51,883 nt of DNA from a virus. The notes beneath the pieces are model-generated. The model did not search any database. It saw only the letters and a program-made list of their open reading frames with translations, and was not told where the DNA came from. The position numbers were made by a program, and so were the translations under genes. The stretch covers positions 1 to 51,883 of the IMG/VR virus record IMGVR_UViG_3300002026_000042; one strand, given 5' to 3'. Below are positions 1 to 47,000 of the stretch, piece after piece; within the stretch, counting starts at the first letter, position 1, and every line of letters begins with the position of its first letter.

Positions 1-179
1 TAAGTTATACAAACCTATACTTGTTTTGTCCTATGAGAAACGGTAAGTTTCTCATCTTGAACACCACAAAATTCATAGCATCCAAGTTTTTACAAAGACC
101 ATGAAAACACTTCTTAATCAACACGGTTGATTTCAAACAAAATGTTCTCATAACACCATCAACCTATTTCGCAACCCCT
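1..179. repeat. 192-bp intergenic direct repeat, copy A (51793..51805 + 1..179 across the circular junction)
   Basis: 1..179 aligns base-for-base with 16925..17103, with substitutions only at 9, 92 and 100. Carries two perfect palindromes: ATGAGAAAC-ggtaa-GTTTCTCAT (33..55) and AATCAAC-acg-GTTGATT (116..132). Ends next to the stop codon of the upstream gene (182..184). Confidence 0.9.
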
Positions 180-181
180 GA

Positions 182-1258
182 TTACGGGGCAACGAATCCA
201 CCAGTCGAGCTGGACATCAAGCAAGGAGGCTGTGCGATGTTGTTGTAGCAACGACCGCCCATGCCCTTGAGGTTGAACGCACGGTTGGTGACATCATTCT
301 GTCCCTTGACGCCGTAGTCATCCGACTCGATAACCGCAGCGGGAACCTCGATGTACACGTCGTTCGCGGAACCAGCAATCGTCACGCGCAGCCAAGTGTT
401 CGCGGCATACAGATACGGGTTCAGCAGCGACCCCGTGCCGTTAGGCCCAAGGATCGGATCGAACACGCCCTCTGGATGATACAGCGTGACAGCCCCAGAC
501 ACGGACATCGCACCCATAAGCACTGCCGTCGGCAAACGATTGCCATTACAGGTGTAAAGGATCGTCTGGTTCTGGGTCACATCGACATTCCATTCCACCG
601 TCTCCATGCCCGTCTGGGGAACCACCCCGCCGTTGAACGGCTCTGTCCAAGTACCCGTGAGCAACTGGGCGTTCGTCTTCCAGTAAGGAATCGGATCCAC
701 GTTGTTGCCACCAGGGTTCAGGGGGTTGGTGGTATTGAAGATCGAGCAGTCCGCGCCGTTCACACCCGTCTTCTGACGGATATACGAGTAGGCATCATAC
801 CCACCCGTGCCACCAGCAGGATTGACTTCGTCACGGTAAATCGCCACAAGACCAAGGGACGCAGTGACGAACGAGTCCTGAGAGGTGGAAAGACCCAGAC
901 TCGTATTCCACGCGCCTTCAAGGTCATAGTTGACCCCATACGCCGCACTCGTCCTGTACTGGTACACACGCGCTCCATCAGGGCTGATATCGAAAGACCG
1001 CCCATACGCCCGCTCCGTGATGCACCACTTGACAATGAAATCCCAGATAGAACCGCCAGCCCCAAGCTGCAACTCGGTTTCAACAGAACCCTCATACCGA
1101 ACCGCATTGTCCGCATAATGAGCCGACTCGGCGGCATTATACCAACCCGCGCCCCACACCGCGTTCGAGAAGATCGGTTCAAGCTGCAAGTTGACACTAG
1201 ATCCCGTACAAAGCATCAGCATCGGCCCCACAGCAGGCCCATCTTGGTACATTCTCAC
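182..1258 (-). CDS. virion structural protein candidate (358-aa ORF; true start uncertain, see intron candidate)
   Basis: Long minus-strand ORF at the distal end of the gene array. Gly/Asn/Thr/Val-rich beta-type composition, no catalytic motif. The GTG at 1258 and ATG at 1252 lack the GGAGG-type SD seen on neighbouring genes (only AAGG about 11 nt upstream). Confidence 0.6.
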   Translation of the reverse strand: MRMYQDGPAVGPMLMLCTGSSVNLQLEPIFSNAVWGAGWYNAAESAHYADNAVRYEGSVETELQLGAGGSIWDFIVKWCITERAYGRSFDISPDGARVYQYRTSAAYGVNYDLEGAWNTSLGLSTSQDSFVTASLGLVAIYRDEVNPAGGTGGYDAYSYIRQKTGVNGADCSIFNTTNPLNPGGNNVDPIPYWKTNAQLLTGTWTEPFNGGVVPQTGMETVEWNVDVTQNQTILYTCNGNRLPTAVLMGAMSVSGAVTLYHPEGVFDPILGPNGTGSLLNPYLYAANTWLRVTIAGSANDVYIEVPAAVIESDDYGVKGQNDVTNRAFNLKGMGGRCYNNIAQPPCLMSSSTGGFVAP

Positions 1259-1531
1259 GAAGCCTTGATCACTCTGTTACTTCAGCCTTTCGGCCTAATG
1301 ACCATCTTTCAATGGCGGGTCAACCTCTTCGGATCAACCTCTCCCGCTTAATTCAAAAGATTATACGGGAGATCAGACTGTCGCTTACGAATAGATTTTA
1401 CTTGACCGGGAAAGCCTTTTCAAACCTGTTCGCCCCTACCACTCAGTCGTTCACGGTCCCTTTCGGGTTCCGCCCTGTCATCCATCACTGGACTTCCAAG
1501 TCAATCAGGTAAGGTGAGATGGGGCACATCT
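1258..1531 (-). ncRNA. candidate group I intron (alternatively a structured 5' leader)
   Basis: Non-coding gap of about 350 nt in an otherwise tightly packed genome. On the minus strand, exon-like AUGGGGU (1538..1532) pairs with GCCCCAU (1525..1519), ending in a U-G wobble at the putative 5' splice site (P1-like). GUGAACGACUGAG (1454..1442) resembles the group I R element and AAGCGACAGUC (1386..1376) the S element, with complementary GACUG/CAGUC (P7-like). Further hairpins: CGG-AA-CCC-GAAA-GGG-A-CCG, GGCC-GAAA-GGCU, UCCA-GUGA-UGGA and UCUCCCG...CGGGAGA. In-frame G residues at 1270, 1264 and 1258 could serve as the terminal G. Confidence 0.4.
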
Positions 1532-1557
1532 ACCCCATTCCCATAATAACACCTCCT
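1530..1557 (-). promoter_or_regulatory. strong SD + ATG opening only a 4-codon ORF (MGMG-stop): putative exon 1 or leader mini-ORF
   Basis: AGGAGG (1557..1552), a 7-nt spacer, then ATG GGA ATG GGG TAG (1544..1530). This is the best ribosome-binding context in the 1259..1608 gap, yet it leads to a stop after 4 codons unless spliced. Confidence 0.45.
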
Positions 1558-1608
1558 ATTTATTCCGCCGTACTAGAGAATGGGATCAGCCCACCTCCCA
1601 CTTCAACA

Positions 1609-2403
1609 CTAAAGCACAATCTGTCTTTCCTTCTTATTCCAGACCGTCAACACATCTCCAACCGTTCCGTCAGCCACGCCCGTGTACTCAACCCCGATCA
1701 AATCTAAGAAACGGTCATTCGCCGTCCCCACGTCAATCAGGCTACCATCAGGCGTACCACCAGCAATAACCATATCCACACTATGTGTGGTATTATTTAA
1801 TTTTTTTACACGTAGCGTTATTGACAGATCCGCAGCCCCGAAACTGTCCACTCGAATCTGCAACTGCGTCCCCGCATAATGTGAACCGTCAGCAGGGGTA
1901 TTCAAGTCCCCATCCCCATAGTTGACCCCGTCCATGAACATCAGCACAAGCCCTGCGTCGACCTCTACCGTCCCGAACAGATCAGCAGACTCTGAAAACA
2001 CGTTGGGTGCCATCATGTACCTACTCGTGATCGCCTTGTGAACCTGCGCAAAATAATAACTGACCCGAACATCATGTGCTTGCAGGTACCCATCCCACCC
2101 GCCGGACTGAAGCGATGCCCCGTTCTGATCCTTGCGAGCGAAGTGGGCAATCATCCCCCAGACGACACCAGACATCAAGGTCCCATTCTTCGCGATACTT
2201 CCAGCATCAAAATCAGAGTCAAGATTAACACTAGGAGATAGTAAGGGAATCTCGACATCAGCGTCATCTGTCCCCGTAACAACATCTGCATAATACCCAC
2301 TCCACTGCTGCTTCGCAGCGTCCGCCGCGTCTTTCAACAACTTGAACTGATAGGCCATCCTGTCTGCAATCCTCAACAACACGTTTGAAGCAATCAAAGC
2401 CAC
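1609..2403 (-). CDS. hypothetical protein (264 aa), probable virion-module protein
   Basis: GTG start at 2403 with GGAGG (2415..2411) 7 nt upstream. No recognisable motif. Confidence 0.65.
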   Translation of the reverse strand: MALIASNVLLRIADRMAYQFKLLKDAADAAKQQWSGYYADVVTGTDDADVEIPLLSPSVNLDSDFDAGSIAKNGTLMSGVVWGMIAHFARKDQNGASLQSGGWDGYLQAHDVRVSYYFAQVHKAITSRYMMAPNVFSESADLFGTVEVDAGLVLMFMDGVNYGDGDLNTPADGSHYAGTQLQIRVDSFGAADLSITLRVKKLNNTTHSVDMVIAGGTPDGSLIDVGTANDRFLDLIGVEYTGVADGTVGDVLTVWNKKERQIVL

Positions 2404-2693
2404 GGCTTTACCTCCGCCAAATATAGATCACATTTCTTTATCATCTCCTCAACCACAGCACGGGTCTTGCTTGCGTGCATCCCGACCACCTCTGCGTAGT
2501 CTCCAGCATTCCGCCTCAATATGCGCTCGTCCTGCTCCGTCTGCCGACTGCGCAGCTTGACCCCCGTCCTGTAGACATTGATCGTCGCCTGCTTTGCCCC
2601 CTCAAGGTATCTCACAATATCCTCAAAGTCGCCGAATATGTCAGCGTCTAATACAGCAGGAATATCGTCCACCGCTACCATTGACCTACTCAT
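2394..2693 (-). CDS. hypothetical protein (99 aa)
   Basis: ATG at 2693 lies 4 nt after AAGGAG (2703..2698) and overlaps the end of the upstream ORF. The longer ORF-track start at 2738 would overlap by 53 nt. Confidence 0.55.
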   Translation of the reverse strand: MSRSMVAVDDIPAVLDADIFGDFEDIVRYLEGAKQATINVYRTGVKLRSRQTEQDERILRRNAGDYAEVVGMHASKTRAVVEEMIKKCDLYLAEVKPWL

Positions 2694-9443: not shown

Positions 9444-9503
9444 TTCCTACCCTCCAAGTTTCCCACTTCAAACACCAACCTCTAACACATTGTGATTAAA
9501 TAT

Positions 9504-9538
9504 CAAAAAATAAAAAGGCATGATTTTTAGTCATGCCT
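9504..9538 (-). terminator. rho-independent terminator downstream of tmRNA
   Basis: Minus strand reads AGGCATGA-ctaaaaa-TCATGCCT followed by TTTTTTATTTTTTG. An extended -10-like TGGTATAAT (9548..9540) sits immediately upstream of the hairpin. Confidence 0.8.
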
Positions 9539-9576
9539 GATTATACCATCTGTCCTATCAAAACCCATATATAAAA

Positions 9577-9944
9577 TGGCGGAGGTGGCGGGAGTTGAAC
9601 CCGCGTCCGTGAAAGCCAGTCTTGAAAGCGTCTACGTGCATAGTCACTGTTTCTCGACATGTAACCCGTCTATTCAGTTCTTAGCTGACAAGCAGGGAGT
9701 TCTTTCAACACCCAAAGCCAGCGTTCTTAGCCGCCATCAATCTCTGTAATCGACACTACTGACACCTACCGAGACAATCTCGGTGCCTTCGTGCTGGTTG
9801 CTTACGCAGCCAGAGCAAAAGCTCTGGCACCAGGGAATGCAATTGAGTTATCAATTGACTTGTAACCGGCTATTAACGAGGCCAACCGGTCAACCTCGGC
9901 ACGCAACTCCCAACCCTCGACCCACGTCGAAACCAGTCACCCCC
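9577..9944 (-). ncRNA. ssrA: tmRNA (SsrA), full length
   Basis: 5' GGGGGTGACTGGTTTCGACGTGGG... and 3' ...GGACGCGGGTTCAACTCCCGCCACCTCCGCCA. Acceptor stem has a G3-U wobble, the T-arm is GCGGG-TTCAACT-CCCGC, and the terminus is CCA. The internal tag reading frame ends GCA TTC CCT GGT GCC AGA GCT TTT GCT CTG GCT GCG TAA (...AFPGARAFALAA-stop). A possible resume codon GCC follows UUAAUA. Confidence 0.9.
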
Positions 9945-16817: not shown

Positions 16818-16911
16818 AGCCACCCTCCTTGGTTCCTACCACCCATTATACGCCAAAGCCCCCGCCAAGAACTTACATTCCAAACGGAGGCTTTGCAACA
16901 ACCATTACAGG

Positions 16912-17103
16912 CAACCGTTCAAGTTAAGTTATGCAAACCTATACTTGTTTTGTCCTATGAGAAACGGTAAGTTTCTCATCTTGAACACCACAAAATTCAT
17001 AGCATCCAAGTTTTTGCAAAGACTATGAAAACACTTCTTAATCAACACGGTTGATTTCAAACAAAATGTTCTCATAACACCATCAACCTATTTCGCAACC
17101 CCT
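16912..17103. repeat. 192-bp intergenic direct repeat, copy B
   Basis: Matches 51793..51805 + 1..179 at 189 of 192 positions. Same palindromes at 16957..16979 and 17040..17056. Bounded by the stop of 17102..17893 and the leader of 16515..16817. Confidence 0.9.
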
Positions 17104-17959: not shown

Positions 17960-18238
17960 TCAATGATTGTTTCCACCGTTCACCGCCACGGGAGTCGCCT
18001 TGTGAACCACACGCCCATTGAACTTGACCCTGAATCCCCATTTTAGGTTTCCCGTGTCTTTCCCATCCACCTCAAGTTCCCTCAGTACCCTGCCAACTGG
18101 AACGATCCACTCTGGCGTCATATCATCAAAACACTTCTCAAGCCCGCTGTAATTAGACCCACGATTATTCATACTCCCCCATAACCTGCATTCGCCCGAA
18201 ATCAAGCACTCTTGCGACAAACAAAAATCGGCTCCCAC
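17960..18238 (-). CDS. hypothetical small protein (70-92 aa, start uncertain)
   Basis: The ORF overlaps the methyltransferase stop if started at 18238. An internal ATG at 18172 would avoid the overlap. Confidence 0.45.
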   Translation of the reverse strand: MGADFCLSQECLISGECRLWGSMNNRGSNYSGLEKCFDDMTPEWIVPVGRVLRELEVDGKDTGNLKWGFRVKFNGRVVHKATPVAVNGGNNH

Positions 18239-20151
18239 TTCTCGCCCCTCCCAAACAAAGAACTAGCCACAAGCCGATGCTCCTTGTAAATACCGTGCCC
18301 CGCCGTAAGATACATCCTAACGTCATCAGCGATATTGTGATCTACCACGTTGGCAATGTTAAGTGCAAAACACCCCCCAACAGACAAGTGCCGCATCGCC
18401 TTCTCTATCAGCGGAAACAGAAACAACTCCTTCCACGCCCCGTAATCCTTATAGCGAAACGCGCTTTGTCTGTCATCGCCCCCATACCACTCCGCATCGA
18501 AATAAGGGGGAGACGTGAATATGAAATCAAACAGCCCACCAACCTCGTAGTCCTCGAATGCCGTGTTGACTATTTTAACCTCTTTCCCATTCCCAACCTT
18601 TGCCGCAAGCCTGTTAAGCCCTGCAACTGTCTCTTTTTCAACCTCCACCCCAACATACTCACTTGCCGCAGAGCAACAAAACCCAAACAATCGTCCGCCC
18701 CACCCCGCACAGGGATCTAAAACGCGTCCCCCAGAAACACAATACCGATCAATTAAAGCCTTCGCAACAACTGGCCTGAAATTGTGAACTCCACCAAATG
18801 TTGCAAGCTCCGCCCGAACCGCAGAATCCGTCACCGACTTCCTATGCTTAATGCAGTCTGTTATCGCATGACGCAACAGCGAATCATCATCGAACACCGC
18901 TATCGGACTCAACTTGCCCTTGCGTTTCGCCGACCAGAACCCTTTGAAAAACGAAAGACACTCTGCACACCCCGCCGTATTGCCAGCAGGAATGTCCGTG
19001 TCAAACTCAAGCCTAGAACCAACAACAGACTGCACCGCCTTTGACACCCCTTCCGCCGTGCTATACGGAAATGAAAACCCAGCACGACGCAAGTGCGCAA
19101 ACACCGTATCGACCCACATGTCCACGTCGCAATCTACAGACAATACATCCCGAGACGCATCAAGCATTACACGCTGATGATTGCACGGGGTACCCCCGAG
19201 ACTAGGCGAAACCTTATACATCATACTTGGGTGCATATGGGGTTTTATCATTTCAAAGAACAGACCCTTGTTTTCAATCACAATGATAGATATGTCGTCC
19301 CGTTCGGCAACTTTAACGTCTAATCCTCGACCATCCATAAACCGCTTGATCCTATCAATATCCTCCCGACAGAATCCTGACGAAATCGTAGGCACCCCAT
19401 CCTTGCACCTGTCAGACAAATGCCCGTCATCCATGTACCAGACAGCAAGAGCCATAGGAGTTAGCATAATCTCAAAACCCACTGGCAACCGCTTCCCGCC
19501 GTCCCCGTAAAACATCTCCTTGAATGGTTGGAACACCCCATGAGAACAAGTATGAAACACATGCCCATAAGCAATCCGACCATCCTCCAGCAGCTTGTCC
19601 TCTCGCCTAATGCGCCCCGAGTACGGGAAAAACACCGCCTGCTTCCATTTCAAATAATCTAGCTGCTCTAAACAGTGCGACTCCTTATACCTTGACGTAC
19701 CCACGCCGCTTATCGCTAAATGTCCATCTCCCAATAATGACCCAAACAAAACGGCCTTCTGTTCTTCAGTCAATGACGATGGGTATGTTGCCTGATTTCG
19801 ATCCGACTTGCCAACCACAGGAATCCCGAACTCACCCCTAATCGTCTTGATCAACATCCTGCTACAACCAAACATCTTAGCCAGTTTGCTTTCTCCCGTT
19901 TGCCAATACATCTCTTCAAACTCACCACGGGTCAGACTGCGAATGTCACGCAGCCCAGAACGACAGGCCCGCCTCGATATCCGATCCCTTGCCGATATGG
20001 TTCCAATACCATATTTTCGACGATAATACGATACCGCGACATCACTTATTCCGTGTATGTCCCCAATCTCCCGATCAGACAATAATTGTTCAACATACAA
20101 CGACTCAATAACATCCTTTGTCAGATCATGCTCTTTATGCGTTTTCTTCAT
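18202..20151 (-). CDS. fusion ORF: two HTH repeats + double-motif LAGLIDADG homing endonuclease + SAM-dependent (SPPY) DNA methyltransferase
   Basis: ATG at 20151 lies 7 nt after AAGGAG. The upstream 63 tracked codons are intergenic and contain a promoter and terminator. HTH-like LSDREIGDIHGISDVAVSYYRRKYGI and ESKLAKMFGCSRMLIKTIRGEFGI. LAGLIDADG motifs LFGSLLGDGHL and LAVWYMDDGHL. Methyltransferase motif I RVLDPCAGWGGRLFG and motif IV FDFIFTSPPYF. Confidence 0.75.
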   Translation of the reverse strand: MKKTHKEHDLTKDVIESLYVEQLLSDREIGDIHGISDVAVSYYRRKYGIGTISARDRISRRACRSGLRDIRSLTRGEFEEMYWQTGESKLAKMFGCSRMLIKTIRGEFGIPVVGKSDRNQATYPSSLTEEQKAVLFGSLLGDGHLAISGVGTSRYKESHCLEQLDYLKWKQAVFFPYSGRIRREDKLLEDGRIAYGHVFHTCSHGVFQPFKEMFYGDGGKRLPVGFEIMLTPMALAVWYMDDGHLSDRCKDGVPTISSGFCREDIDRIKRFMDGRGLDVKVAERDDISIIVIENKGLFFEMIKPHMHPSMMYKVSPSLGGTPCNHQRVMLDASRDVLSVDCDVDMWVDTVFAHLRRAGFSFPYSTAEGVSKAVQSVVGSRLEFDTDIPAGNTAGCAECLSFFKGFWSAKRKGKLSPIAVFDDDSLLRHAITDCIKHRKSVTDSAVRAELATFGGVHNFRPVVAKALIDRYCVSGGRVLDPCAGWGGRLFGFCCSAASEYVGVEVEKETVAGLNRLAAKVGNGKEVKIVNTAFEDYEVGGLFDFIFTSPPYFDAEWYGGDDRQSAFRYKDYGAWKELFLFPLIEKAMRHLSVGGCFALNIANVVDHNIADDVRMYLTAGHGIYKEHRLVASSLFGRGEKWEPIFVCRKSA

Positions 20152-20181
20152 AAAATACTCCTTGTTAAACGTATAACTTGC

Positions 20182-20210
20182 ATTTAACCGAAAAACAATC
20201 GGCTTGTCAA
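20182..20210 (-). promoter_or_regulatory. sigma70-type promoter
   Basis: Minus strand TTGACA (20210..20205), a 17-nt spacer, then TTAAAT (20187..20182). Sits about 30 nt upstream of the ATG at 20151 and directly after the capsid terminator. Confidence 0.55.
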
Positions 20211-20291
20211 CTTGTATGTTTCCGAAAAACAAACAAGCAGTAAACCTAAACCAAAGAACACAAGAATAGTATTTCAGACTTTTGAAGAAAG

Positions 20292-20334
20292 CAAACAAAA
20301 ACAAAAAACCCTTGGGAGGTTTATTTCCCAAGGG
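20292..20334 (-). terminator. strong rho-independent terminator after the major capsid gene
   Basis: Minus strand CCCTTGGGA-aataaacc-TCCCAAGGG (9-bp perfect stem) followed by TTTTTTGTTTTTGTTTG. Confidence 0.85.
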
Positions 20335-20365
20335 TCTCAAACGCCTACATTACAGGCATTTACGC

Positions 20366-34928: not shown

Positions 34929-37900
34929 TCATCCACGACGGGAAGCCCACACCGTTATCAAATCAGCAGCAGCGGGATTCTGGCGCAAATCGTAATCCAC
35001 CACAGCCGTCCCTGGGTTCAAATCCATGCGAACCTGCTTTGAATCAGGCCCCTTCGTTTTCAACCGCTCCGAAAGCCAATCCCTAACCGACTCATTCACT
35101 GCCTTGGAGTTCAGACCACGAAGGTCACTACGGTATTCAGCGTGGCTCGACCAGTCGACCTCCACGTCCCGCTTCTTCGACATCGGCAGCGTCTGACCAT
35201 AATCATACGGCCCGTAGATAGACTTGACCTCCGCATTGCTCAAATCATCCGCTGGGCTCTTGGTCTTCACGAACCGTTGCAGCTTCTCAAGAATCTTTCC
35301 AAGCGTGTCGGGCGTGAACCGATTCTTTGCCTTCTGCAATACGTCCATGATCCCCGCCTCGAACGCCCGCCCCTCATGGGTCATGCGCAAGTCAGCCTTG
35401 TCCTTCTGACGCTTCGTCTTGTGGAACTTGCTCTTATCCCGATGAACCCGTGTCCCCAAGTTCCGATCAGTGGGCATCCGATGCTTTGTCGGCATTGCAG
35501 CAGCACGGGCAAGCCCGTAGGTGGCGTCGCTGGGTCTCGGGGGACGCTTGGCCTGCGGGGCTGGATAGACTTCAAGATCAGCCTTTGCCTCGCTCAAGTC
35601 CGCGCTGGAATAATTCGGGATGACCGTGTACTTATCCACAATCCCCTTCAGCACCCCGAACGACTTGACGATAGACTTGGACTGCTCCAGAATCAAGTCC
35701 TCTGGAACAAAACGCGGCCTGTTGCGATTGCGGAACAGGCTGACCTCCACGGGCACCCAAGCATAGATCAGGAATATCCGATACCCCTCTGCCCGCGCAA
35801 CCTGCGCCTTGCTGATGATACTGCGGGGGTCACGCCCCGTACCGTCAACAATCACGGGATCACCCGTTCCGCTCGTGACAATCTGCTTGTACTGTGCGTC
35901 TGAAATCTGCTTGCTCAGATCATGCAACTTGCCAGGGTTCTCGGAATCATACTCGGGGTGCGCTTGCTTTATTTCATCGGGATCAACCACCTTGGAGTTC
36001 AGATACTTCATGTAGCGTTTCGACCGCAGCCACGATTTTCCGGACCCCGCCGGACCTATGAATAAAACGGCTTGCCAGCGAATGTCCTGCGGCCCAGCGA
36101 CCTTGCATAACCCAGCAACCCCCATCTCCCGCAACGCCGCTATGATCGGGTCTCGATCAATACTTGAAAGTTTCATATCAGGATCTCCATCTATATCTTT
36201 ATCCCGTTGCTCATCCGTCTTGGTCTTAGTCCTCCACGGCTTCTTGACATCCTCGCGAGGGGATCGCTGCTCGACATCATGCGTGTGCTTCTTTGATGTA
36301 CCACCCGTGTCAGAAATCAGATCTCGGTCTTTCCTATTGACCTGTAGCCCCCTCGCTCCACGACGCGACATGGACGCCGCCTTGCCCGTTAGGTACTCCA
36401 TCTCGCTCTGGAACAACGGCCACTGTTTCAACTTTGATGCAAGCTGCGACGGGTTACCAGCATCCTGATCAAAGGAGTCCATAAGCTCGCGGAACTCCTG
36501 CTCCGTCATCTTTTCCTTTACGCTAGACAGGCTATGGCGAGCCTTGGCGACGGCCCCCGGTGCTCCCAACTCAATGTCCTTTGCCGCCGCCCGAAGGTCA
36601 TGCCGCCCCGTCTTCTTCAGGAACGACTTCATAACCTCCGTCGCCGCCGAATCAACAGGGGACTTGTCTACCCCATCGATGTTCAACTGCGTCACGGCCT
36701 TGCCATCCTTGTTGGAGAACTGCGTAGACCCCGTCTTTCCCTTGACTGGCTTACCCTTCATATCCTTTGTGAACTTGTCGAACTGCCTCTCTGCAACCTC
36801 GTCCCCGAACAGGGAATCAACAATCTCCCCATCTGGCGAATAGGTCATGTTGACATTCATCATCTTGTTGGCCTTGTCAAACTCAAAGCTGTTCAGCCGC
36901 CCGCTGTACCGACTAAGAACGTCCGCGCTGACAGAGAACTTGCCCTCGATCATATCCGACACCTGACGGTGCAACAGATCCTTGTCAACATCGGCAATGT
37001 CATTGTCCCCGTCAATATGCTCGTGCAACGCATTCTTGTTCGCGTCCTGCATCTGCTTCGACTTCTTTACCTTTTCCTGAACCTCTGGTGATTCGTACTT
37101 TTCCTTGTCCTGTTTGAACTTGGCAACCGCCGCCTCATACTCCTCGGGCTTCGCGAACTTTGCCTGCTCTGGCTCCTTCGGCTTCGGCGGCTCCATCTCC
37201 GCAGCCAGCCGCAACTTACAAACCGTTTCCATCGTTTCAGGCTTGCGGATGAAAAGTTCCTGAACCTTGTCAGTACCGAACAACGCCGTGTTATCAGCAA
37301 GACGGACGGCAGATGCCACTGGTTCCTTGTCCCAGTCCATCTCCGCCGCGTCATGCGTGGTAACCAGATTCTTGTACTTCTCGAATCCGTCCTTTCCGAA
37401 CAGCTTTGCGTACCGATCCGTCTCCTCCCCGATTGCCACGACAGACGCATCCTTGTGACCGCTACCCTTTGTTGCATCCGTGGCGATAGCCCCCATAGTA
37501 TAACCAATGTCGTGATTCGCCATTACCGACATGACCATGACCTTGTCTATACCATTGATCGGCGAACCAGTCTTGGAAAGCTGACCCATCATCTGCATCG
37601 CACTCTCGCAGTTTCCAGCAACGTGCCTTACCCCGTGATCACCAATCGGACGCCGCCTCTGCTCCACCTCCTGATGCAACATCCGCTTGACGTCCTCCCG
37701 CAAGAACTCGTCCAGATCCTCTTGTGAAACATCTCCAAGCGACCCGTCGTTTGCCGCCTCCTCTACCGCGCTTGCAAAATGTTCAACGAACTTGTCAGCC
37801 CTCGGACGGGCGTCATCAGACAATGATGCTGCAAACTTGTCAATCACGCTGGTTGCGTTCTTCTTCAACTCCCCAGCAAAGGCTTTCGCATTTTCCTTGC

Positions 37901-38711
37901 TGACAGGCTCCTTGCTGACCGACTTCGTCTCCTTGATCTGAGGGTTATCATAACGGGAAAGATTACGGCCCACGTTCTTCGTGAAGGTCTCAAGATCCGC
38001 CTTGTTGTAATCAGGCAACCCAGCACTCGCCGCACGCCCCGCCTCAATCGCCTTGTCAACCATTGCCTTCTGCTCTGGCGTCAAGTCCTTGACCTTTGCA
38101 GCCGTTCCATCAGGAAACCTGACAACCACATTCTTTGTCAACTGCGTCGGATGCAGCTTGTGCGCCTCCCACCCCTCACCAGCGGGGAATGCGGGGTGAT
38201 CCGTCACCGATACCTCTCGGTCAATCTTGTACGGCTTTTTCTTCTGATCTTCCTGCTGCTTAGGCTTCTGCTTATCCTTCTGATCGTCCTGCTGCTTAGC
38301 CTTCTCATCCTGTTCCTTGACGTGATGCAACGATCTATCAGCATCAGGATGTGCTTCCAGATAGGTGTCTATCTGATTCTTCGTGTCAAAGTCGATTGCG
38401 AAGCGACGGGAAGCGGTTGTCACCTGTGGGAGCAAGGATATAACGCCCTCCCCCTCATCTAGCTTCTTCCAGTCGATCTCCTCTTTATCCCCAGACGGAG
38501 CATCCCCTTTCGCCTCCTCGTCCCCAGCCTCTGGTTGTTCATTCCCGTCAGACTCGGGCGCAGCGGGTGTTTCAGACGATTCTCCCTCAGATGAATTAGG
38601 CTCTGGATCAGCCGTATCCTCGGACTCCCCGCCCGACTGCAACACCTCAAGCATCTTCTGCTTGATTTCATCTTTCAGCTTTTCGTCAACCGCCGCACGC
38701 CTTGTCATCAT
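34929..38711 (-). CDS. 1260-aa polyvalent-type protein: acidic N-terminus, HD phosphohydrolase domain, P-loop kinase (zeta-toxin/AAA_33-like) domain, C-terminal small domain
   Basis: HD: GDHGVRHVAG...MANHDIGYTMG (about 37500..37640). Walker A LFIGPAGSGKSW (about 36027..36056) followed by a D-x-TG Walker B-like segment. C-terminal HAEYRSDLRGL... resembles DUF4258-type small nuclease/toxin domains (weak). The ATG overlaps the portal stop (ATGA). Confidence 0.65.
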   Translation of the reverse strand: MMTRRAAVDEKLKDEIKQKMLEVLQSGGESEDTADPEPNSSEGESSETPAAPESDGNEQPEAGDEEAKGDAPSGDKEEIDWKKLDEGEGVISLLPQVTTASRRFAIDFDTKNQIDTYLEAHPDADRSLHHVKEQDEKAKQQDDQKDKQKPKQQEDQKKKPYKIDREVSVTDHPAFPAGEGWEAHKLHPTQLTKNVVVRFPDGTAAKVKDLTPEQKAMVDKAIEAGRAASAGLPDYNKADLETFTKNVGRNLSRYDNPQIKETKSVSKEPVSKENAKAFAGELKKNATSVIDKFAASLSDDARPRADKFVEHFASAVEEAANDGSLGDVSQEDLDEFLREDVKRMLHQEVEQRRRPIGDHGVRHVAGNCESAMQMMGQLSKTGSPINGIDKVMVMSVMANHDIGYTMGAIATDATKGSGHKDASVVAIGEETDRYAKLFGKDGFEKYKNLVTTHDAAEMDWDKEPVASAVRLADNTALFGTDKVQELFIRKPETMETVCKLRLAAEMEPPKPKEPEQAKFAKPEEYEAAVAKFKQDKEKYESPEVQEKVKKSKQMQDANKNALHEHIDGDNDIADVDKDLLHRQVSDMIEGKFSVSADVLSRYSGRLNSFEFDKANKMMNVNMTYSPDGEIVDSLFGDEVAERQFDKFTKDMKGKPVKGKTGSTQFSNKDGKAVTQLNIDGVDKSPVDSAATEVMKSFLKKTGRHDLRAAAKDIELGAPGAVAKARHSLSSVKEKMTEQEFRELMDSFDQDAGNPSQLASKLKQWPLFQSEMEYLTGKAASMSRRGARGLQVNRKDRDLISDTGGTSKKHTHDVEQRSPREDVKKPWRTKTKTDEQRDKDIDGDPDMKLSSIDRDPIIAALREMGVAGLCKVAGPQDIRWQAVLFIGPAGSGKSWLRSKRYMKYLNSKVVDPDEIKQAHPEYDSENPGKLHDLSKQISDAQYKQIVTSGTGDPVIVDGTGRDPRSIISKAQVARAEGYRIFLIYAWVPVEVSLFRNRNRPRFVPEDLILEQSKSIVKSFGVLKGIVDKYTVIPNYSSADLSEAKADLEVYPAPQAKRPPRPSDATYGLARAAAMPTKHRMPTDRNLGTRVHRDKSKFHKTKRQKDKADLRMTHEGRAFEAGIMDVLQKAKNRFTPDTLGKILEKLQRFVKTKSPADDLSNAEVKSIYGPYDYGQTLPMSKKRDVEVDWSSHAEYRSDLRGLNSKAVNESVRDWLSERLKTKGPDSKQVRMDLNPGTAVVDYDLRQNPAAADLITVWASRRG

Positions 38712-41700
38712 TTTCTCAACCTCCCAACCGCTTCAGCCGCAACCTCCGCCGCCGTATCAATTTCATCATCGCTAGGGTTATCCCCCAACGTCTCTATTGC
38801 CGCCGCAGCAGCCGACTCAATCTGACTATCCCCACCGCTATCACCCGACATCGTTCCATCAGCCTCCTCGGAAAGCCCCCAGTCACCCCCGCCACCTTGG
38901 TATTCTCCCGAGCCACCATCTGCATACCCAGACTCGTCCCCTCCGCCTCCGCCCATTCCTCCATCCCCCTCGTCGGGCTTGGCGTATTTCAGACCTAGGT
39001 ACTTGGCAATGCGTTCAACAACGTCAGAGTTCTCAACGATATTCCGACCCACCTCACTACTGATTTCCTCAAGCAGCCTGTTGAAGTTGGCGTCCTTTAC
39101 GGTAAGCATATCCTTCTTCAGTCCCTCGCTTATCTCGTCTGCATTAAGGTTGAATAATTCATAAATTATATCAACAGGAATACTTCCCTTCTGATACAAC
39201 TGGAACAAGGACTCAAAGACCTCCTGATTGTCTCGGATCGTTATGCGATTGAAACCGACCGTCGGATGCAGGTACTTCTTTATCCCATTAGCCCCCATCT
39301 CGTACCACTTGTGCGCCTCGCAGATCGGAATGAAAAGCTGTTCCTCTATGTAATTCCGAAGCATCTCTCGGGTCAACACGAACGTGGTGTTCATAATCTC
39401 AACGGTTATCCTGTTGCCCGTGAAGTTCCCCTCACCCGTCATCAGCTCCCGCGTTATCCCCAAGGCGGCAAACACCTGATTCTCGATCCGCTCGTACTCC
39501 TGACTCAAATCCAACAACCGATCCTGCGCCCCGATCTGATTCCATTCGATCTGGTAGTTCGTGACAACGCTGTAGTCTGGATCCAGCATCGACATATCTA
39601 TCTGAGTGCGAAGCTCATCGACCTCGCTCGGCATCAGCCCCGGCGCTGAAATCACGTTTCGGGGCGTCATGTTCCTGCTTGCCAGACTCAACTGCGCATA
39701 CCGATACTGCTCCTTCTGCAACATCGGAACCAGCACCCGCTCCAGCACCGACGCGCCCAGATCAAGATACGGGCTCTTACGCCTCGCGAAATGATGAACG
39801 AAAGAACCCGTCATAGGATCACTGTCCATAACGATACAATCATTCTCGACCACCATATCCACAAGCTCTTGCGGTATGTTGTCGAGGATCTCCGAGTTCA
39901 TATCCGACCTGTCGCAAGACCCGTCAGGCAACTCGCTGCCCGTGTCATCGGATGCCCCAGCCTGCTGTTTGATCAGTTGGATCAACCGCGTCGGCCTGTA
40001 CTCCACCCGCTTCTTGTCGGAGAATGGGTATTGGAATACCCCCACCTCCTCGGGCGGCAACATGATAGCCTTACTCCACATCTTCTTTTCCTCATCCCAC
40101 TCATGGAACAGGAAGCAATTATGAGTACGGATACCAGCAGCGCAGTACGTGTGAGAGCCTTTTACCTCGAAGTTGTACACATGTCCTGAATAAAAAGGTC
40201 TATCAACTTCGTCAACCCTATAGTAAAACTTGCCATCAACCTGTTTGAACGTCGGATTAACTTCTACGACTTCGCTCCACGTTGCCTCTTTTTCTTTAAG
40301 GCACCCATGAATCAACGATTCAACAAAACCACGAGTTCCGATATTGACGTTAAAACATATTTTATTACCAACAACACGTTGGTCTCCGATAGATGTATCC
40401 ACCATCCTCTTACTTGCACTGAATGTCATTGGGAATCCACATTTTATTGAAATGTGAAAAAGTTGAATCATTAGCTCCTTGTTCGTCCCCGCTATTCCCA
40501 CGGTTAGTCCAGACTCTTTTTCAGATACACATCCGTCACTGTCGATAAGCCCACGAAGCAACCACACTAATTTTTCTTTCGGCAACTCCATTACCCAACC
40601 AGGGATTTTCTTACTACCACACTCGGATCCGAAGTTTATATTCCACCACGAAGCAAATACAGGGTCTCTAACAACGACATGATCCATGTGATCGTAAATC
40701 ACCTTTTCACTAGACACCGCCTCGTCTCCAAACAACGAAACAGCAATGTCGTTTATTCGGTTGAAAAACTCTGGGACCAACGGAGAAACACAAATGTCCA
40801 ACCCGATAAACTCCCGTGAAAACTTGTTCTTATTCTTCCACAGCCAACCATCTCCAAGCCAATACCCAAGATAATACAAAAAGTCTTCATCAATGCGGAT
40901 AGACCTCGGAACAAGCGATTCCATGCGAATGGTACGATCCACGACAGACTCTTCGTCTCTTTTGTCTGTCGGAAACCACCGCATAGAACTTCCACCGCCA
41001 TAACCAAGGCTAGTTCTTTCCGTTTTTATAACCCCCTTCTGTCTAAGATAATATGCCGCACTTCTAACTCTTACACCGTCTGAGACCCCGAGCATCAAAG
41101 CGACCTCAGAGCACTCCTTAACAACTGGTTCTTTAAGAGTCGAAAGCCACGAAACAATTGACTCTCGAACCTCCTTGGATGACACGTTTATTCCCGACGG
41201 AGTCTCGTATTCACAAACAACCCCAGAATCATCAACCGAAACAGACGAATAGAACGATCTTAAAGAAGGAAGAACCTCGTCAAACCAATCAATCTTGTCT
41301 ATGTCTACATTCTTTTCTATTCCCCCGATCCCGATCCAGTCCCCCCTATGAACTTCCTCGGCTTTCACCATCTTCTCTTGACCGTCTCTCAACACAAAGA
41401 CAGGATGCTCACTCGTTGGCGAGAACTCCAAACCAGAAAGTCGCGACACCCCTAGACTGACAAGCCGTTCCGACACCTTGCGCCGTGCAATCCCTGAAAC
41501 TTCCGAAAAGTTCCCATCAGCGTCAAGCACCATGTCTCCTTCTCTTATATCACTGATAGGAACAACACCTTCACGAGTAAGAATAGGAGTGTCTCCCTTA
41601 AAGCAGTTCCCGATCATGGAGGCCTCCATCAGGATAGACTGGGCAAGGTCAAACATGTGAAGCACCTTCATCTGGTTCTCGAAAAACTCCTTGATCTCCG

Positions 41701-42835
41701 CCTGCTTCTCCTTGTCCTGCATCTTCGGCATGTGCAAAGTGAACTTGGACATCGGCAAGTCAGATAGCAAGTCAAGCCCGCGACCGACATACGCATCGGT
41801 GTTGTGAGTCACCATGCCGTTGCAGATATAGGACTTCTCATCTCCTTCCGCATCAACCTCTATGTTGTGAACGATGTCATCTTCTTGCGAGAACGTCACC
41901 TCTTTGACCTGGAATGCCGCATAGCCATTTATCAAAAAGGCACCAGGAGCAGACTCTTTCGTTTCAACTGGATCCCACAAGACAGAATCTGAAACAAGCC
42001 CATTCGCACTCCACGATGGAATCGAGATATGAATCTGCTTGTTGCCACTGTCATATCCAGACCCCGAAGTCCGATCATACACCGCATACCGACACATCAC
42101 CCTTGCTTGTTCGTTCGTAATCTCCCCCGCCCTAGACGACGGCAATGGAGGAAGAAGAACATAGTCCCCCGGCTTGACATCCTCGGCATGAACCCATTCA
42201 GGATTGAATTGGATGTTATTCTTGAACCGCCCTCCATTCGCATAACGCAACTTCTCACCGCGAAGTATCCAGTAAGGATGATGGTGGGTTGTTTTAAGAT
42301 GATTCTGTAGGCACCACGCTTTGATCGTCGTAGCCTTGTCGTCTGCAAATCGACGCTCAAACTTATCTTTAACTAGCCTCACGGTTCCCAGTCCCGTAAC
42401 GACACTATCCCCGATCTGTACATCTCGGATGTCTTTTACCGTGCCATCAGCCATCGTCACTAGACCTAGGTCGTTGTCGCTTAGGTAGATACAACGGGCG
42501 AAATATCTGTACCACTGGTATTTCTCTGCCAGCGTGACGGGCCAATACAACCGCCCGCCGTTCTGCTGGTTCATCATTGTGAAATACATCGGAACGTCAT
42601 ACGTCCCCGTACGATCCCCAAGCCCGTAGGCGTAGCTCGACCTGTACGCCTCCATCCTGTACCCAGACTGGTATGGGGCGGCCTGCTGCGCATCGTCCAG
42701 CAGCATACCTGCGGTTCTATCAAACCCGAACCCGCCAGCCCCCTCTGCCTTCTTGGCAATACGAGCCTTCAGCGGATCAGCCTTGCCGACCGCCACCTTA
42801 GGCACCTTCATTCCCGCCGTAACTTTCCCAGCCAT
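38708..42835 (-). CDS. portal protein interrupted by two inteins (extein about 648 aa)
   Basis: The extein sequence reads through as ...KYQWYRYFAR/TDAYVGRGLDLLSDLPMSKF...MEASMIGN/CFLFHEWDEEKKMW.... Sits downstream of the terminase as expected for a portal. Gly/Asp/Ser-rich acidic C-terminal tail. Confidence 0.8.
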   Translation of the reverse strand: MAGKVTAGMKVPKVAVGKADPLKARIAKKAEGAGGFGFDRTAGMLLDDAQQAAPYQSGYRMEAYRSSYAYGLGDRTGTYDVPMYFTMMNQQNGGRLYWPVTLAEKYQWYRYFARCIYLSDNDLGLVTMADGTVKDIRDVQIGDSVVTGLGTVRLVKDKFERRFADDKATTIKAWCLQNHLKTTHHHPYWILRGEKLRYANGGRFKNNIQFNPEWVHAEDVKPGDYVLLPPLPSSRAGEITNEQARVMCRYAVYDRTSGSGYDSGNKQIHISIPSWSANGLVSDSVLWDPVETKESAPGAFLINGYAAFQVKEVTFSQEDDIVHNIEVDAEGDEKSYICNGMVTHNTDAYVGRGLDLLSDLPMSKFTLHMPKMQDKEKQAEIKEFFENQMKVLHMFDLAQSILMEASMIGNCFKGDTPILTREGVVPISDIREGDMVLDADGNFSEVSGIARRKVSERLVSLGVSRLSGLEFSPTSEHPVFVLRDGQEKMVKAEEVHRGDWIGIGGIEKNVDIDKIDWFDEVLPSLRSFYSSVSVDDSGVVCEYETPSGINVSSKEVRESIVSWLSTLKEPVVKECSEVALMLGVSDGVRVRSAAYYLRQKGVIKTERTSLGYGGGSSMRWFPTDKRDEESVVDRTIRMESLVPRSIRIDEDFLYYLGYWLGDGWLWKNKNKFSREFIGLDICVSPLVPEFFNRINDIAVSLFGDEAVSSEKVIYDHMDHVVVRDPVFASWWNINFGSECGSKKIPGWVMELPKEKLVWLLRGLIDSDGCVSEKESGLTVGIAGTNKELMIQLFHISIKCGFPMTFSASKRMVDTSIGDQRVVGNKICFNVNIGTRGFVESLIHGCLKEKEATWSEVVEVNPTFKQVDGKFYYRVDEVDRPFYSGHVYNFEVKGSHTYCAAGIRTHNCFLFHEWDEEKKMWSKAIMLPPEEVGVFQYPFSDKKRVEYRPTRLIQLIKQQAGASDDTGSELPDGSCDRSDMNSEILDNIPQELVDMVVENDCIVMDSDPMTGSFVHHFARRKSPYLDLGASVLERVLVPMLQKEQYRYAQLSLASRNMTPRNVISAPGLMPSEVDELRTQIDMSMLDPDYSVVTNYQIEWNQIGAQDRLLDLSQEYERIENQVFAALGITRELMTGEGNFTGNRITVEIMNTTFVLTREMLRNYIEEQLFIPICEAHKWYEMGANGIKKYLHPTVGFNRITIRDNQEVFESLFQLYQKGSIPVDIIYELFNLNADEISEGLKKDMLTVKDANFNRLLEEISSEVGRNIVENSDVVERIAKYLGLKYAKPDEGDGGMGGGGGDESGYADGGSGEYQGGGGDWGLSEEADGTMSGDSGGDSQIESAAAAAIETLGDNPSDDEIDTAAEVAAEAVGRLRK
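40118..41605 (-). mobile_element. portal intein 2 (496 aa) with LAGLIDADG homing endonuclease
   Basis: aa 411..906. Starts CFKGDTPILTREGVVPISDIREGDMV, has block B SPTSEHPVFV, LAGLIDADG motifs YLGYWLGDGW and LLRGLIDSDGC, and ends HVYNFEVKGSHTYCAAGIRTHN followed by Cys. The DNA is visibly more AT-rich than the flanks. Confidence 0.85.
41801..42493 (-). mobile_element. portal intein 1 (231 aa, no clear endonuclease motifs)
   Basis: aa 115..345. Starts CIYLSDNDLGLVTMADGTVKDIRDVQIGD (block A), has KTTHHHPYW (block B TxxH), and ends IVHNIEVDAEGDEKSYICNGMVTHN followed by Thr. Confidence 0.8.
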
Positions 42836-44006: not shown

Positions 44007-47000
44007 TCAAAATCTAATTAAAGGAACACCCACGCTGCCCTTACGCTGGTAAGCCCCACGCGGGTGATCCCCATGCCTTTTCATTCTATCCACCATGAAC
44101 CCAAGCGACGTCTGCATCCCAAGGCTGCTCCTCCCGCCCGTAGCACTGCCACTAACGACGTTCATCCCACCATCCTTGGAATCGTTATAGCACGCCCAGA
44201 CCGCACGCGCAAGTGCGTCGCTTATGTCATCGTGAGCCCCAGCCCGATGCGGGGCACGAACAAGAACCCGATGCTTGTTCTTCATCTCCGCCTCCAGCGA
44301 CAATATCTCTGGAATCAGCACGGGGTCATCATAGAGAACCAGAAGCTCCTCGGCGTACATCCGCTTTAGCAACTGGTAGATGGAACTGTTCAGCAAATCG
44401 TTGAACTCCTTCATCTCCAGCATCCCCAGACCACAGGTTTTAAGCATTTCAGCAAGTGCATACCCGTTGTGCTGGTCAAACAACCCCTTCTTGAACGGGA
44501 ACCATTTGTGCGTTTCCTTGATCTCCCCGATCATATCCGCCATAGACAACAAGTCCTTGTCCGAGTACTTGCCGCACCCCGCATAGATCGACCTGTCCGA
44601 ATCCCAGACATCAGACGCCCCAGAGTACCAGACCTTCGAGTAGTCCAAGTACACCTTTCTGGTTTGCATATCCTTATGGACAACACACAAGGCTGTACCG
44701 TCGTTCTTGAAACCCAAGTCAATCCCAGCATAGTATTCGATGCCAGTCTGCCCACGGCGGGGTGCTGACGGTAGGGTGATACACTTCTTCATCTCGTTCT
44801 CATCCTCGACCCACGCCTTTACGGAGTCGGAGAACTCCGCCCCGTATTCGCACATGAAAGATGACCTGTCACGACGCTTGGCAGCAACCAGAATCTCCTT
44901 CGGCAAATCGGGATTCATCATTGCAGAGTACATCTTGAAGCTGAGGGTCACATCGGTTTCGTCAAACGACTGTATGAACCGCTCGTAGAATATCCCGAAC
45001 TTTGCATAGGGTGAAGAGATGCATATCACCTTCCCGTCATTCTGGAACGATGCGACAGACGGCGTTAGCGCACGATAGACTTCCTTACCGCTGAACCTGC
45101 CCGTGTTGTCTATGAAGAAGGCCATCTCGTCCATGATTACGACAATCGCGTTCTTACCACGGAGGGTGTTGGAGGAGCAGCCGCCAGACAGCATGATCAG
45201 TGACGGAATCGCCTTAGGCCCCAGAGCGATATCCGCATCCGTCTGGAAGTCAAAGTACGTTTGCGTCGAATGCACACCACGCCCCTGAAGGTATGGGCAC
45301 TGGATGGCAAGCGTCTTTGCCATGCCGAACACCGTGTCTGATTGATCATCCGCTGGGGCGACGTTTAGGATGTAGCACTTGGTGAAAGCTGGGAATCCAT
45401 AAGAAGCAGACGGGTCGCCCTTCTTGATCAGCTTGTACATCTCGTAATTCGACATACACGCAGAAAGGGTGGAGTTGTGAGAAACGACATCACCACCGAT
45501 AATGTGAGTGCCCGAAACCTCCACGTCAACCGTCAGTCTCTTTCCCACGCAATTCAACGACGACACCTCATCCCACATAACATCCGATGTTCCCATATTC
45601 ATCAAGAAATCGTCACATATTTTTTCCCCATACAACTGTACCTTTCTCCTGCTTGGAGCATAATTCCACCTTAACCTTCCCCTAGCCCCAACACCATGTT
45701 CCCCCACGACATCTGCCCCAGACAATCCTCTTTCCGACATAACTTTCTTTACGTATCTCCATATCCCTTTGGGAACAGAACCAAATTCACTTTTAGACAC
45801 CTCCCGTCTCCTGGCCGACTCAACAACCAAGTCAACCTCTTTCTCTTTTGAAAGAATACCAATATCATTCCGAAATTTTTCAAGACTGTCCGCCCGTGCA
45901 ATGCAAAGACTCCACGATTCAAATGACTTACCCCCACATGTGTTTTTCTTTTTATTCACAATGGAATGTATTCCATACTTAAGAAGCAAATGCCGCACCC
46001 CGTCTATCATCTTTCGCGACGCTGAACAATACCCGATATGCGCACTAGGACTGCCGCCATGTCCCGCCGCAACTTTCCCTTTCACGGTTGCCCACCCATC
46101 ACATCCAAAAAGACGAGACAAAAAAGCAGAAACCTCGACCCGTGATCCTCTCAAAATACAATCAGGGACTTCCTTTATTACAGCCTTTTTGCCAAAACAC
46201 CCCACACTCCGAAGCCACTCCTTGACTTCATTTTTCCGGCTCCCATATTGTTTGAATCGCCCAGATTCTTTTTGCACCTCATATCCAAGACGAAATGACT
46301 TAAGACCCTTCTTCCTCACAACGTATCCGGGAAACTCAAGAGCAATAAGTTTCTTCAAATCGCCCAACATCACTTCGCTTCCAGTAGTATATCCAACAGA
46401 ACATGTAGTCCCTCCATCGCCTTGGAAATGTCCCAGCAACGCCGCTCTTGCCACTCCGACTCCAGCCAGTCCAAATAACTCCGTACAAGCCGCAATCGCA
46501 ACCTTGTCTCCTACCATCAGGTTTTTCATTTCGACGAAATCAGGCTTATCCATGTCATCCCGCCATACCAGATAAGGATGATTCCAAGATGAGGTTTCCC
46601 TTATCCCCCGCTTCGTTACCAACTCACAACATTCAACTCGCCCATTATACTGCGCTTTTATTTGATCAGAAATAGATCGACGCAAGGTAACAGGATCGTA
46701 AGTACCTATTCCTATTTTTTCTCCATTTCCCAACCGATCACAAAGCTCACCGAATGTTATCGACCCAGCCGTCGTTGCAATCAGATCATCCTTATCCCGG
46801 CACTTGCCCGACCGACGACCGATAGACCATACCAACTCACGGAACAGCATGCCATCCGTCTCGTCCACGTTGCAACGCCCTTCGGCATACAACCACTTCA
46901 GGAAATCCGCCTCGTTGAACTCATACAAGATCCGCTCATTGGTTTCGTCTGGAACCTTGATCGTCTTGGAACCACGATCAAGTGGCAGACCGTACGCGCA

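Follow-up and report, generated by a model that had tools for sequence, protein, structure and literature searches.

Group I introns have been documented in the structural genes of several phages, including capsid and tail genes of Cluster J mycobacteriophages (PMC3706429), the terminase and tape-measure genes of Lactobacillus phage JCL1032, a head gene of Tuc2009, and genes of the Bastillevirinae. In the Cluster J phages BAKA and Optimus, an intron of about 265 nt that lacks an open reading frame (ORF) interrupts a minor tail gene and was shown by reverse transcription PCR (RT-PCR) to be spliced (Pope et al. 2013, PMC3706429). The JCL1032 tape-measure intron is given as proven self-splicing (Riipinen and Alatossava 2004, as cited in PMC6669764), and the td and nrdB introns of T4, both of subgroup IA2, are the classical self-splicing phage introns. 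Here we describe a related element in a viral DNA of 51,883 nt (IMG/VR record IMGVR_UViG_3300002026_000042, positions 1 to 51,883; the whole stretch is referred to as the window). A 262-nt insert on the minus strand, 1531..1270, is very probably an ORF-less group I self-splicing intron that splits a putative tail-tube gene at codon 5. This reading draws on four independent lines of evidence, namely the exact interruption seen by comparison with homologues and with an intron-less contig (L001), splice-site rules, covariation, and family links that include the BAKA intron. Introns of this group are thus known from phage structural genes, and the window intron adds another member.

All genes around the intron are on the minus strand, to which the coordinates of the locus refer, and a 350-nt gap without a long ORF separates a 264-amino acid (aa) ORF ending at 1609 from a 358-aa ORF that runs from GTG 1258 (or ATG 1252) to 182. 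Within the gap, a Shine-Dalgarno sequence AGGAGG (1557..1552), identified by sequence and by the layout of L001, lies 7 nt before an ATG (1544..1542) that opens the mini-ORF ATG GGA ATG GGG TAG (1544..1530), and no Shine-Dalgarno sequence is found ahead of either GTG 1258 or ATG 1252; both points were made in the initial annotation. The 13-nt exon 1, ATG GGA ATG GGG T (ATGGGAATGGGGT, 1544..1532), codes for MGMG and the first base of Tyr5, and is followed by the 262 nt of the predicted intron, with A1531 first and G1270 last, and then by ATCAAGGCTTCGTG. Exon 2 begins AU CAA GGC UUC GUG AGA AUG UAC (..YQGFVRMY..) and continues to the stop codon (1269..182), and the predicted spliced junction is ATGGGAATGGGGT^ATCAAGGCTTCGTG (a caret marks a junction or splice site throughout). 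Excision of 1531..1270 joins U1532 to A1269 and restores the split Tyr codon (U^AU), yielding MGMGYQGFVRMYQDGP, and translation of the joined exons gives 366 aa with the N-terminus MGMGYQGFVRMYQDGPAVGP.

With the 358-aa protein as query, 202 relatives were found, and the N-termini of the best 120 of these were classified. MGMGYQG begins 72 of them and MGYQG another 7, while 6 have a start codon directly before YQG, one is longer, and 34 are shorter. In an alignment of the homologues (A4), M1, M3, G4, Y5, and G7 are invariant within the N-terminal MGMGYQGF, and the closest intron-less homologue (P0002, 79% identity) has the N-terminus MGMGYQGFIRMYKQGP (MGMGYQGFIRMYKQGPAVDP). Intron-less homologues thus start with the residues of exon 1, a comparison that the initial annotation had proposed as a check. 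The same organization is seen at the DNA level in the intron-less IMG/VR contig L001, in which AGGAGG and 8 nt are followed by ATGGGAATGGGAT running without a break into ATCAAGGATTTGTA (uninterrupted DNA AGGAGGaattatttATGGGAATGGGAT^ATCAAGGATTTGTAAAA), and the upstream gene is the same as in the window. The insertion point is between bases 1 and 2 of codon 5 (Tyr), and because this codon is split, it can be restored by no excision other than that at U^...G^AU. Three positions had been put forward for the 3' splice site G, of which 1270 fits the homologues; use of 1264 or 1258 would give MGMGC.. or MGMGL.. products that lose the conserved YQG, and we rejected both. The true gene start is therefore the AGGAGG and ATG at 1557..1542.

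These data also bear on a different account, raised as an alternative in the initial annotation, that takes the gap for a structured 5' leader. The MGMG mini-ORF would then serve as a regulatory upstream ORF, with translation of the tail-tube protein beginning at GTG 1258 (MRMYQDGP) or ATG 1252 (MYQDGP). Gene callers did pick this start (protein P0001, of 356 aa, begins MYQDGP), the region is structured (for 381 nt, the folding energy is -123.7 kcal/mol with z = -2.84, and 2 of 100 shuffles are as stable), and an Rfam intron match is absent, as described below. However, the family has MGMGYQGF as its conserved N-terminus, the residues QGFVR are coded in frame immediately 5' of ATG 1252, the same ribosome binding site (RBS) and ATG are fused straight to the gene in L001, neither 1258 nor 1252 has a Shine-Dalgarno sequence, and the helices described below are those of a group I ribozyme. 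We consider a leader very unlikely, and MGMG to be the true N-terminus. Translational hopping of the type seen in T4 gene 60, with take-off at Gly4 (GGG) before the UAG and landing downstream, is harder still to credit. The Gly codon followed by UAG and a hairpin superficially resembles what is reportedly the gene 60 take-off site, but gene 60 has a gap of 50 nt where the one here is 262 nt, a matching GGG/GGN codon for landing is missing ahead of AUCAAGG, the split Tyr5 codon (U...AU) could not be rebuilt by hopping, and homologous inserts split many other genes at U^...G boundaries.

The predicted helices of the insert, in the order P3-P4-P5-P6-P7-P3'-P8-P7'-P9 and with a P3/P7 pseudoknot, constitute the set of a group I ribozyme. 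P1 is formed by the exon strand AUGGGGU (1538..1532) and the guide GCCCCAU (1525..1519), a 7 bp helix with U1532·G1525 at the 5' splice site; A1531-U1526 can lengthen it, leaving a loop of GAUG. P2 is absent. The 5' strand of P3, CCUUACC (1514..1508), pairs with GGUAGGG (1440..1434) as a pseudoknot with P7, and J3/4, UGAUUGA (1507..1501, 7 nt), leads into a P4-P6 domain at 1500..1453. In this domain, P4 pairs CUUG (1500..1497) with CAGG (1477..1474) and is joined by J4/5 (GAA) and J5/4 (GA) to P5, in which GUCCA (1493..1489) pairs with UGGAU (1484..1480) around a GUGA loop (1488..1485). P6 pairs GCGG (1473..1470) with CCGU (1456..1453) and is capped by P6a, CCC (1467..1465) with GGG (1460..1458), closed by a GAAA loop (1464..1461). 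The R-like element GUGAACGACUGAG and the S-like element AAGCGACAGUC have complementary cores, GACUG (1448..1444) and CAGUC (1380..1376), which make up P7; its 5' strand also includes the bulged C1449 and A1450, the latter pairing with U1375. This P7 layout is classical, in that a bulged nucleotide sits beside the invariant G1448-C1376, the position of the guanosine-binding pair, and the core resembles the RF00028 consensus AGACUA...AUAGUC (as displayed in the alignments of the control introns described below). The 3' strand of P3 is 3 nt (AGU, 1443..1441) from P7, without a P7.1/P7.2 insertion.

P8 is an extended hairpin in the minimum free energy (MFE) fold (1433..1387), with GCGAA (1433..1429) paired to UUCGU (1391..1387) at its outer end, and is followed by J8/7, AAGCGA (1386..1381), and the P7 3' strand CAGUCU (1380..1375), both placed by invariant or near-invariant alignment columns and P7 pair counts. 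The 3' domain (1372..1284) contains P9 (1372..1366 with 1346..1340), P9.1 (1339..1332 with 1325..1318, around the invariant AUCCGAAGAGGUU), P9.2 (1316..1312 with 1305..1301), and P9.3 (1295..1292 with 1287..1284, GAAA loop 1291..1288), the last being missing from some relatives. It is followed by a 3' tail, GAAGUAACAGAGUG (1283..1270), that includes a GUAACAG conserved in the family and ends with the terminal G1270. P10 would consist at most of GAU (1530..1528) with AUC (1269..1267), 3 bp at a distance of 2 nt from the P1 strand. P1 with its U-G wobble, the complementary R-like and S-like cores, the P3 and P8 pairings, and the GNRA-type loops had each been proposed in the initial annotation and are all present, whereas its manual fold of P4-P6, which it gave as non-canonical, is superseded by the resolved P4, P5, P6, and P6a. 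Group II introns have a GUGYG 5' end, an AY 3' end, and six domains, and are usually longer than 400 nt; the insert is 262 nt, begins AGAUG and ends GUG, and its size and end sequences exclude this class.

To examine covariation we used an alignment (A1) of 34 compact introns of the family, including that of the window, made with MAFFT and not fitted to the structure. The window helices were mapped onto it, with P3 written as a pseudoknot, and controls were generated by sliding the 3' partners by 1–3 columns and by 500 shuffles. Standard pairs occupy 98.4% of the 1519 pair cells compared with 36–47% in the slid controls, compensatory changes on both sides are found in 28 of 45 pairs, and the covariation score is 0.518 compared with 0.05–0.12 in the slid controls; none of the 500 shuffles equaled any observed measure. 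Both-side changes are seen in 6 of 7 pairs of P3 (98.3% of cells paired), in all four pairs of P4 (100%), in 2 of 4 pairs of P5 (89.7%), in 5 of 6 pairs of P6 with P6a (100%), and in 4 of 8 pairs of P9.1 (99.6%), and P9 also covaries. The closing pair of P7 is AU in 17 sequences, GC in 14, and UA in 3, and the outer pair A1450-U1375 becomes U-A in two members (L046 and L078). P8 is variable in length, and its two basal pairs covary in the family. RNAalifold, which is blind to the proposed structure, recovers P3, P4, P5, P6, P6a, P9, P9.1, and P9.2 from the alignment.

A P1-like helix of 5–9 bp ending in U·G, with its guide 5–8 nt before P3, is found in 33 of the 34 members, the exons of which are unrelated. 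In about half of the members, exons joined at a G 3–5 nt past GUAACAG open a reading frame, and the junction VTLQNQDP^VLNEAA is shared by three different introns. RNAalifold also raises the possibility that C1276 pairs with G1374 in J7/9 (UCUGA; columns 239/369), with a single GC-to-AU event in L043. J3/4 is nearly invariant, and G1506 within it (column 51) covaries with G1442 in J7/3 (column 160), as G/G in 29 sequences, A/A in 4, and A/G in one. This G/G and A/A pattern suggests a non-Watson-Crick tertiary contact in the long J3/4. Pairing of J3/4 with GUAACAG or GGUCA was considered and set aside, as no compensating changes are present in the alignment.

The steps of splicing proposed here follow from established group I chemistry. 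In the folded transcript, the exon end AUGGGGU would base-pair with the guide GCCCCAU as P1. The pair G1448-C1376 in P7 would bind an external guanosine, and this would attack the bond after U1532. The terminal G1270 would then replace the guanosine, and the freed 3'-OH of exon 1 would attack after G1270, joining the exons. The arrangement also has consequences for translation, in that the RBS, the start codon, and the 5' splice site all lie within about 26 nt and an in-frame stop, U^AG, straddles the splice site. A ribosome starting on the unspliced RNA would halt at this UAG after MGMG, and could not then enter the ribozyme core. The exon strand of P1 corresponds to codons 3–5, so that an initiating ribosome would cover it. 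Splicing and translation initiation are therefore probably mutually exclusive on one transcript, as judged from this layout, and splicing would take place before or between initiation events. We also observe that a leader segment, CCCAUUCUC (1584..1576), is complementary over 9 bp to GGGAAUGGG in exon 1 (1542..1534). The MFE fold includes this helix, which would mask the start region and form in competition with P1; it is restricted to the window and the lineage of its near-identical copies (L002–L004), the leaders of the more diverged relatives L005 and L006 being short.

An element of this kind could be a group I intron by descent that no longer self-splices, either needing a protein cofactor of the phage or host or leaving the gene inactive here. 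P10 is weak and J3/4 longer than usual, and among the Bastillevirinae, by the account given in PMC11878797, four of eight spliced introns are spliced in infected cells only and not in vitro. However, the core helices are all intact, the columns invariant in the 34-sequence alignment are (by definition) kept in the window, the near-identical copies L002–L004, from three other metagenome contigs, have intact exons, and the tail-tube gene is presumably essential. We regard loss of self-splicing as unlikely, if somewhat less so than the leader, and favor a self-splicing intron.

The initial annotation had pointed to the Rfam group I model as a check and listed a missing covariance-model match among the observations that would speak against an intron, and that model does not recognize the element. 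RF00028 gives no match on 1100..1750 even at E<=10 and no match at E<=1 on 14 loci of the family, and an Rfam cmscan of the whole window finds a tmRNA gene alone and no intron. We examined how RF00028 (threshold 50 bits) performs with introns of T4, JCL1032, and BAKA as controls (L128, L129, and L130, respectively). T4 td is missed, and scores under the threshold are obtained for T4 nrdB (35.7 bits) and for the BAKA intron (28.6 bits), which is known from RT-PCR to be spliced; the JCL1032 tape-measure intron alone passes, with 59.4 bits. Since proven phage introns are missed or score below threshold, the negative result with RF00028 carries little weight; a match to it is a detection aid and not a defining feature of group I introns.

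We then compared the element with these introns using a covariance model of the family core (R1, P3 to P7', 114 positions). With filters off, R1 scores 20.7 bits on the BAKA intron (E 1.5e-4, roughly calibrated, in a search of 1.5 kb) and aligns across all 114 positions, with P3, P4, P5, P6, and P7 in the same order. As in the window, a U closes exon 1 and a G closes the intron (PMC3706429), there are 3 nt between P7 and P3', and the 3' end, AGUAACAAACCG, resembles the GUAACAG tail of the family. The BAKA intron differs in having a P2 hairpin and a 4-nt J3/4, where the window intron has no P2 and a 7-nt J3/4; in lacking the invariant AUCCGAAGAGGUU P9.1 motif; in its score on RF00028, for which the window has no match; and in lying in another host gene, far from the start codon.

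The T4 td and nrdB introns are likewise in protein-coding phage genes and share, by inference for the window, the same kind of mechanism. The P7 core of nrdB (UCAACGACUAG...GAUAUAGUCUGG) is nearly the same as that of the window (UGAACGACUGAG...GCGACAGUCUGA), and the td intron, like the window's, has in-frame stops early in the intron. Unlike the window intron, td and nrdB carry endonuclease ORFs, and nrdB and the JCL1032 intron have tens of nucleotides (P7.1/P7.2) inserted between P7 and P3' compared with three in the window. An insertion at this position is said to define subgroup IA (Michel and Westhof, 1990), and with 3 nt (AGU, 1443..1441) here the window intron does not fall with the T4, Twort, and SPO1 types of that subgroup. 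The JCL1032 intron, of group I, also interrupts a phage tail gene, and from the end of P7' through the P9 hairpin it matches a member of our family (L070) at 29 of 29 nt; it has a P2, and the P9 of the window is unlike its own. R1 gives no significant match to T4 td.

Several of these observations weigh against the assignment as a self-splicing group I intron. In addition to the failure of RF00028 on the window and on 14 family loci, R1 does not match the JCL1032 intron, and its match to T4 nrdB (E 0.65) is not significant. The link to proven group I introns would thus run through BAKA, for which the score is modest and E-values are roughly calibrated. The sequences of A1 were gathered by a 3'-domain motif and represent one lineage, such that some covariation counts repeat inherited events. 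Finally, the 7-nt J3/4 is unusually long and P10, at 2–3 bp, is weak. Taking these together with the exact interruption of the gene, the splice-site rules, the covariation, and the family links, the proposal of the initial annotation that a group I intron lies 13 nt into a structural gene is well supported.

To examine the product of the interrupted gene, an AlphaFold model of the 358-aa ORF was built on 35 sequences (mean pLDDT 81.4, pTM 0.81). A fold search with this model matches the tail-tube protein of P74-26 (8ed0, E 7.9e-12, TM 0.50) as well as the tail-tube proteins of T5 and DT57C. The major tail-tube protein is thus the most likely product of the gene, consistent with the structural role first suggested for it. 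Sequence matches are weaker, with PF18906 (Phage_tube_2) at E 0.23 for the window protein and at 8e-6 to 5e-5 for three homologues; Pfam and PHROGs give only sub-threshold tail-tube or minor-tail hints for the host protein and its neighbors. A PDB sequence-profile search with the host protein found no match, and no relatives of the tube protein were found in a scan of GTDB genomes.

Inserts of the same type are present at the same place in contigs that encode N-terminally short homologues. In the diverged relative L005, the exon AUGGGAU is matched by a guide GUCCCAU, a compensatory change within P1 (GGG/CCC to GGA/UCC), and P7 is GACUA/UAGUC compared with GACUG/CAGUC in the window. In L006 and L007 the splice site is one base earlier, AUGGGU^UAAG...GGAUG^UAUCAAGG, with P1 as AUGGGU/GCCCAU and P3 as CCUUCUC/GAGAAGG. 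The intron position in the same gene is thus shifted by 1 nt, from GGG U^A...G^AU in the window and L005 to GGU^U...G^UAU in L006 and L007, and the U·G pair and terminal G are kept in both. L005 and L006 likewise have an immediate stop at the 5' splice site.

L006 (GCA_005795785.1, SESG01022158.1) also has a free-standing LAGLIDADG ORF (958-1746) directly upstream of its intron-bearing tail-tube gene (1747-1990). This ORF starts with a duplicate of the RBS and first codons of the tube gene, ATGGGTATGGG, and ends ..KEDTTMGMG* on the first stop codon of the intron (the asterisk denotes the stop). From this arrangement, the endonuclease gene seems to have entered at the position where the intron is inserted, accompanied by a duplication of about 27 nt, and the intron-less site, ATGGGNATGGGNTAYCARGG, is a candidate target of the endonuclease. 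Cyanophage S-PM2 psbA reportedly has an intron with a neighboring free-standing homing endonuclease ('collaborative homing'), and L006 is similar in that a free-standing LAGLIDADG gene lies directly 5' of an ORF-less intron, at the insertion site. The window differs from S-PM2 in this respect, as tblastn found no homologue of the L006 endonuclease in it. Since the window intron has no endonuclease gene, any mobility would need a nuclease acting in trans, as in L006.

The family extends well beyond tail-tube genes. The 3'-domain motif TCCGAAGAGGTTNNNNCGCCA has matches in at least 119 IMG/VR stretches, mostly full introns with the same conserved blocks, and long insertions in the P6 or P8 loops, some with ORFs, are common among the relatives. 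In IMG/VR, R1 identifies 109 cores (E<1e-5) distributed over 100 loci, a single locus having as many as three; it scores the window at 93.5 bits, the window having belonged to the training set. No second intron of the family was found in the window, R1 included among the searches. Outside the training set, R1 finds an unannotated copy at 101 bits in Roseobacter phage CRP-118, which is also the sole match in a distant blastn search of phages with the window intron; a megablast search of window positions 1..2500 against GenBank phages gave no match. The CRP-118 copy (L127:2480-2880; OR420741.1, about 35056-35455) lies between the ribonucleotide reductase coding sequences gp44 and gp45. We also note three IMG/VR contigs in which three R1 cores lie within about 1–1.5 kb (L047:5189-6009, L031:2438-3413, and L052:7257-8780). 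These look like multi-intron genes, and some are in ..VTLQNQDP^VLNEAA.. genes, which probably encode a putative capsid protein.

One interpretation is that the window intron represents a subclass of group I introns in phages, large and structurally distinct, that is hitherto unmodelled and invisible to the Rfam model and colonizes virion and nucleotide-metabolism genes of environmental phages. The joint features of this subclass would be the absence of P2, P7.1, and P7.2, the invariant 7-nt J3/4 UGAUUGA with its G/G and A/A covariation, the P9.1 motif AUCCGAAGAGGUU, and the GUAACAG tail, together with often several copies per gene and genes that are systematically mis-called as truncated or split. 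We offer this tentatively, as a possibility on the doubtful side.

Elsewhere in the window, two further segments qualify an early claim that the gap at the intron is the only large non-coding one, as both 9444..9889 and 16824..17101 are without a minus-strand ORF of at least 70 aa. The first overlaps a full-length tmRNA gene (9577-9944, minus strand; RF00023, 130.4 bits, E 8.6e-51) in what is apparently a phage genome. The second, of 278 nt, lies between ParB-like and S-AdoMet-lyase-like ORFs (weak Pfam matches) and has no Rfam or R1 match. The description of the genome as rich in homing elements fits three large minus-strand ORFs, one with Intein_splicing, Hint, and LAGLIDADG_3 domains (38708-42835), one with LAGLIDADG_3 (44007-47144), and one with LAGLIDADG_2 (18202-20340).

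Recognition of the intron has consequences for annotation and for the biology of these phages. The tail-tube gene in this phage and in the near-identical contigs is mis-called at 356–358 aa with its true N-terminus missing, and the shortened or odd N-termini in 40 of the best 120 of the 202 homologues could share this cause, a point checked for three of them (P0001, P0015, and P0033). In the isolated phage CRP-118, the annotation gives the ribonucleotide reductase as two genes, one on either side of an intron of the family. The family has more than 100 copies in IMG/VR and is invisible to the standard Rfam model for group I introns; a model dedicated to it would bring many phage introns to light. 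The 1-nt shift in splice site and the endonuclease gene at the intron site in L006 are useful for the study of intron mobility. The 13-nt exon 1 of the window provides a compact natural case in which to study competition between translation initiation and ribozyme folding, and, should the broader subclass prove real, it would additionally couple splicing to translation initiation.

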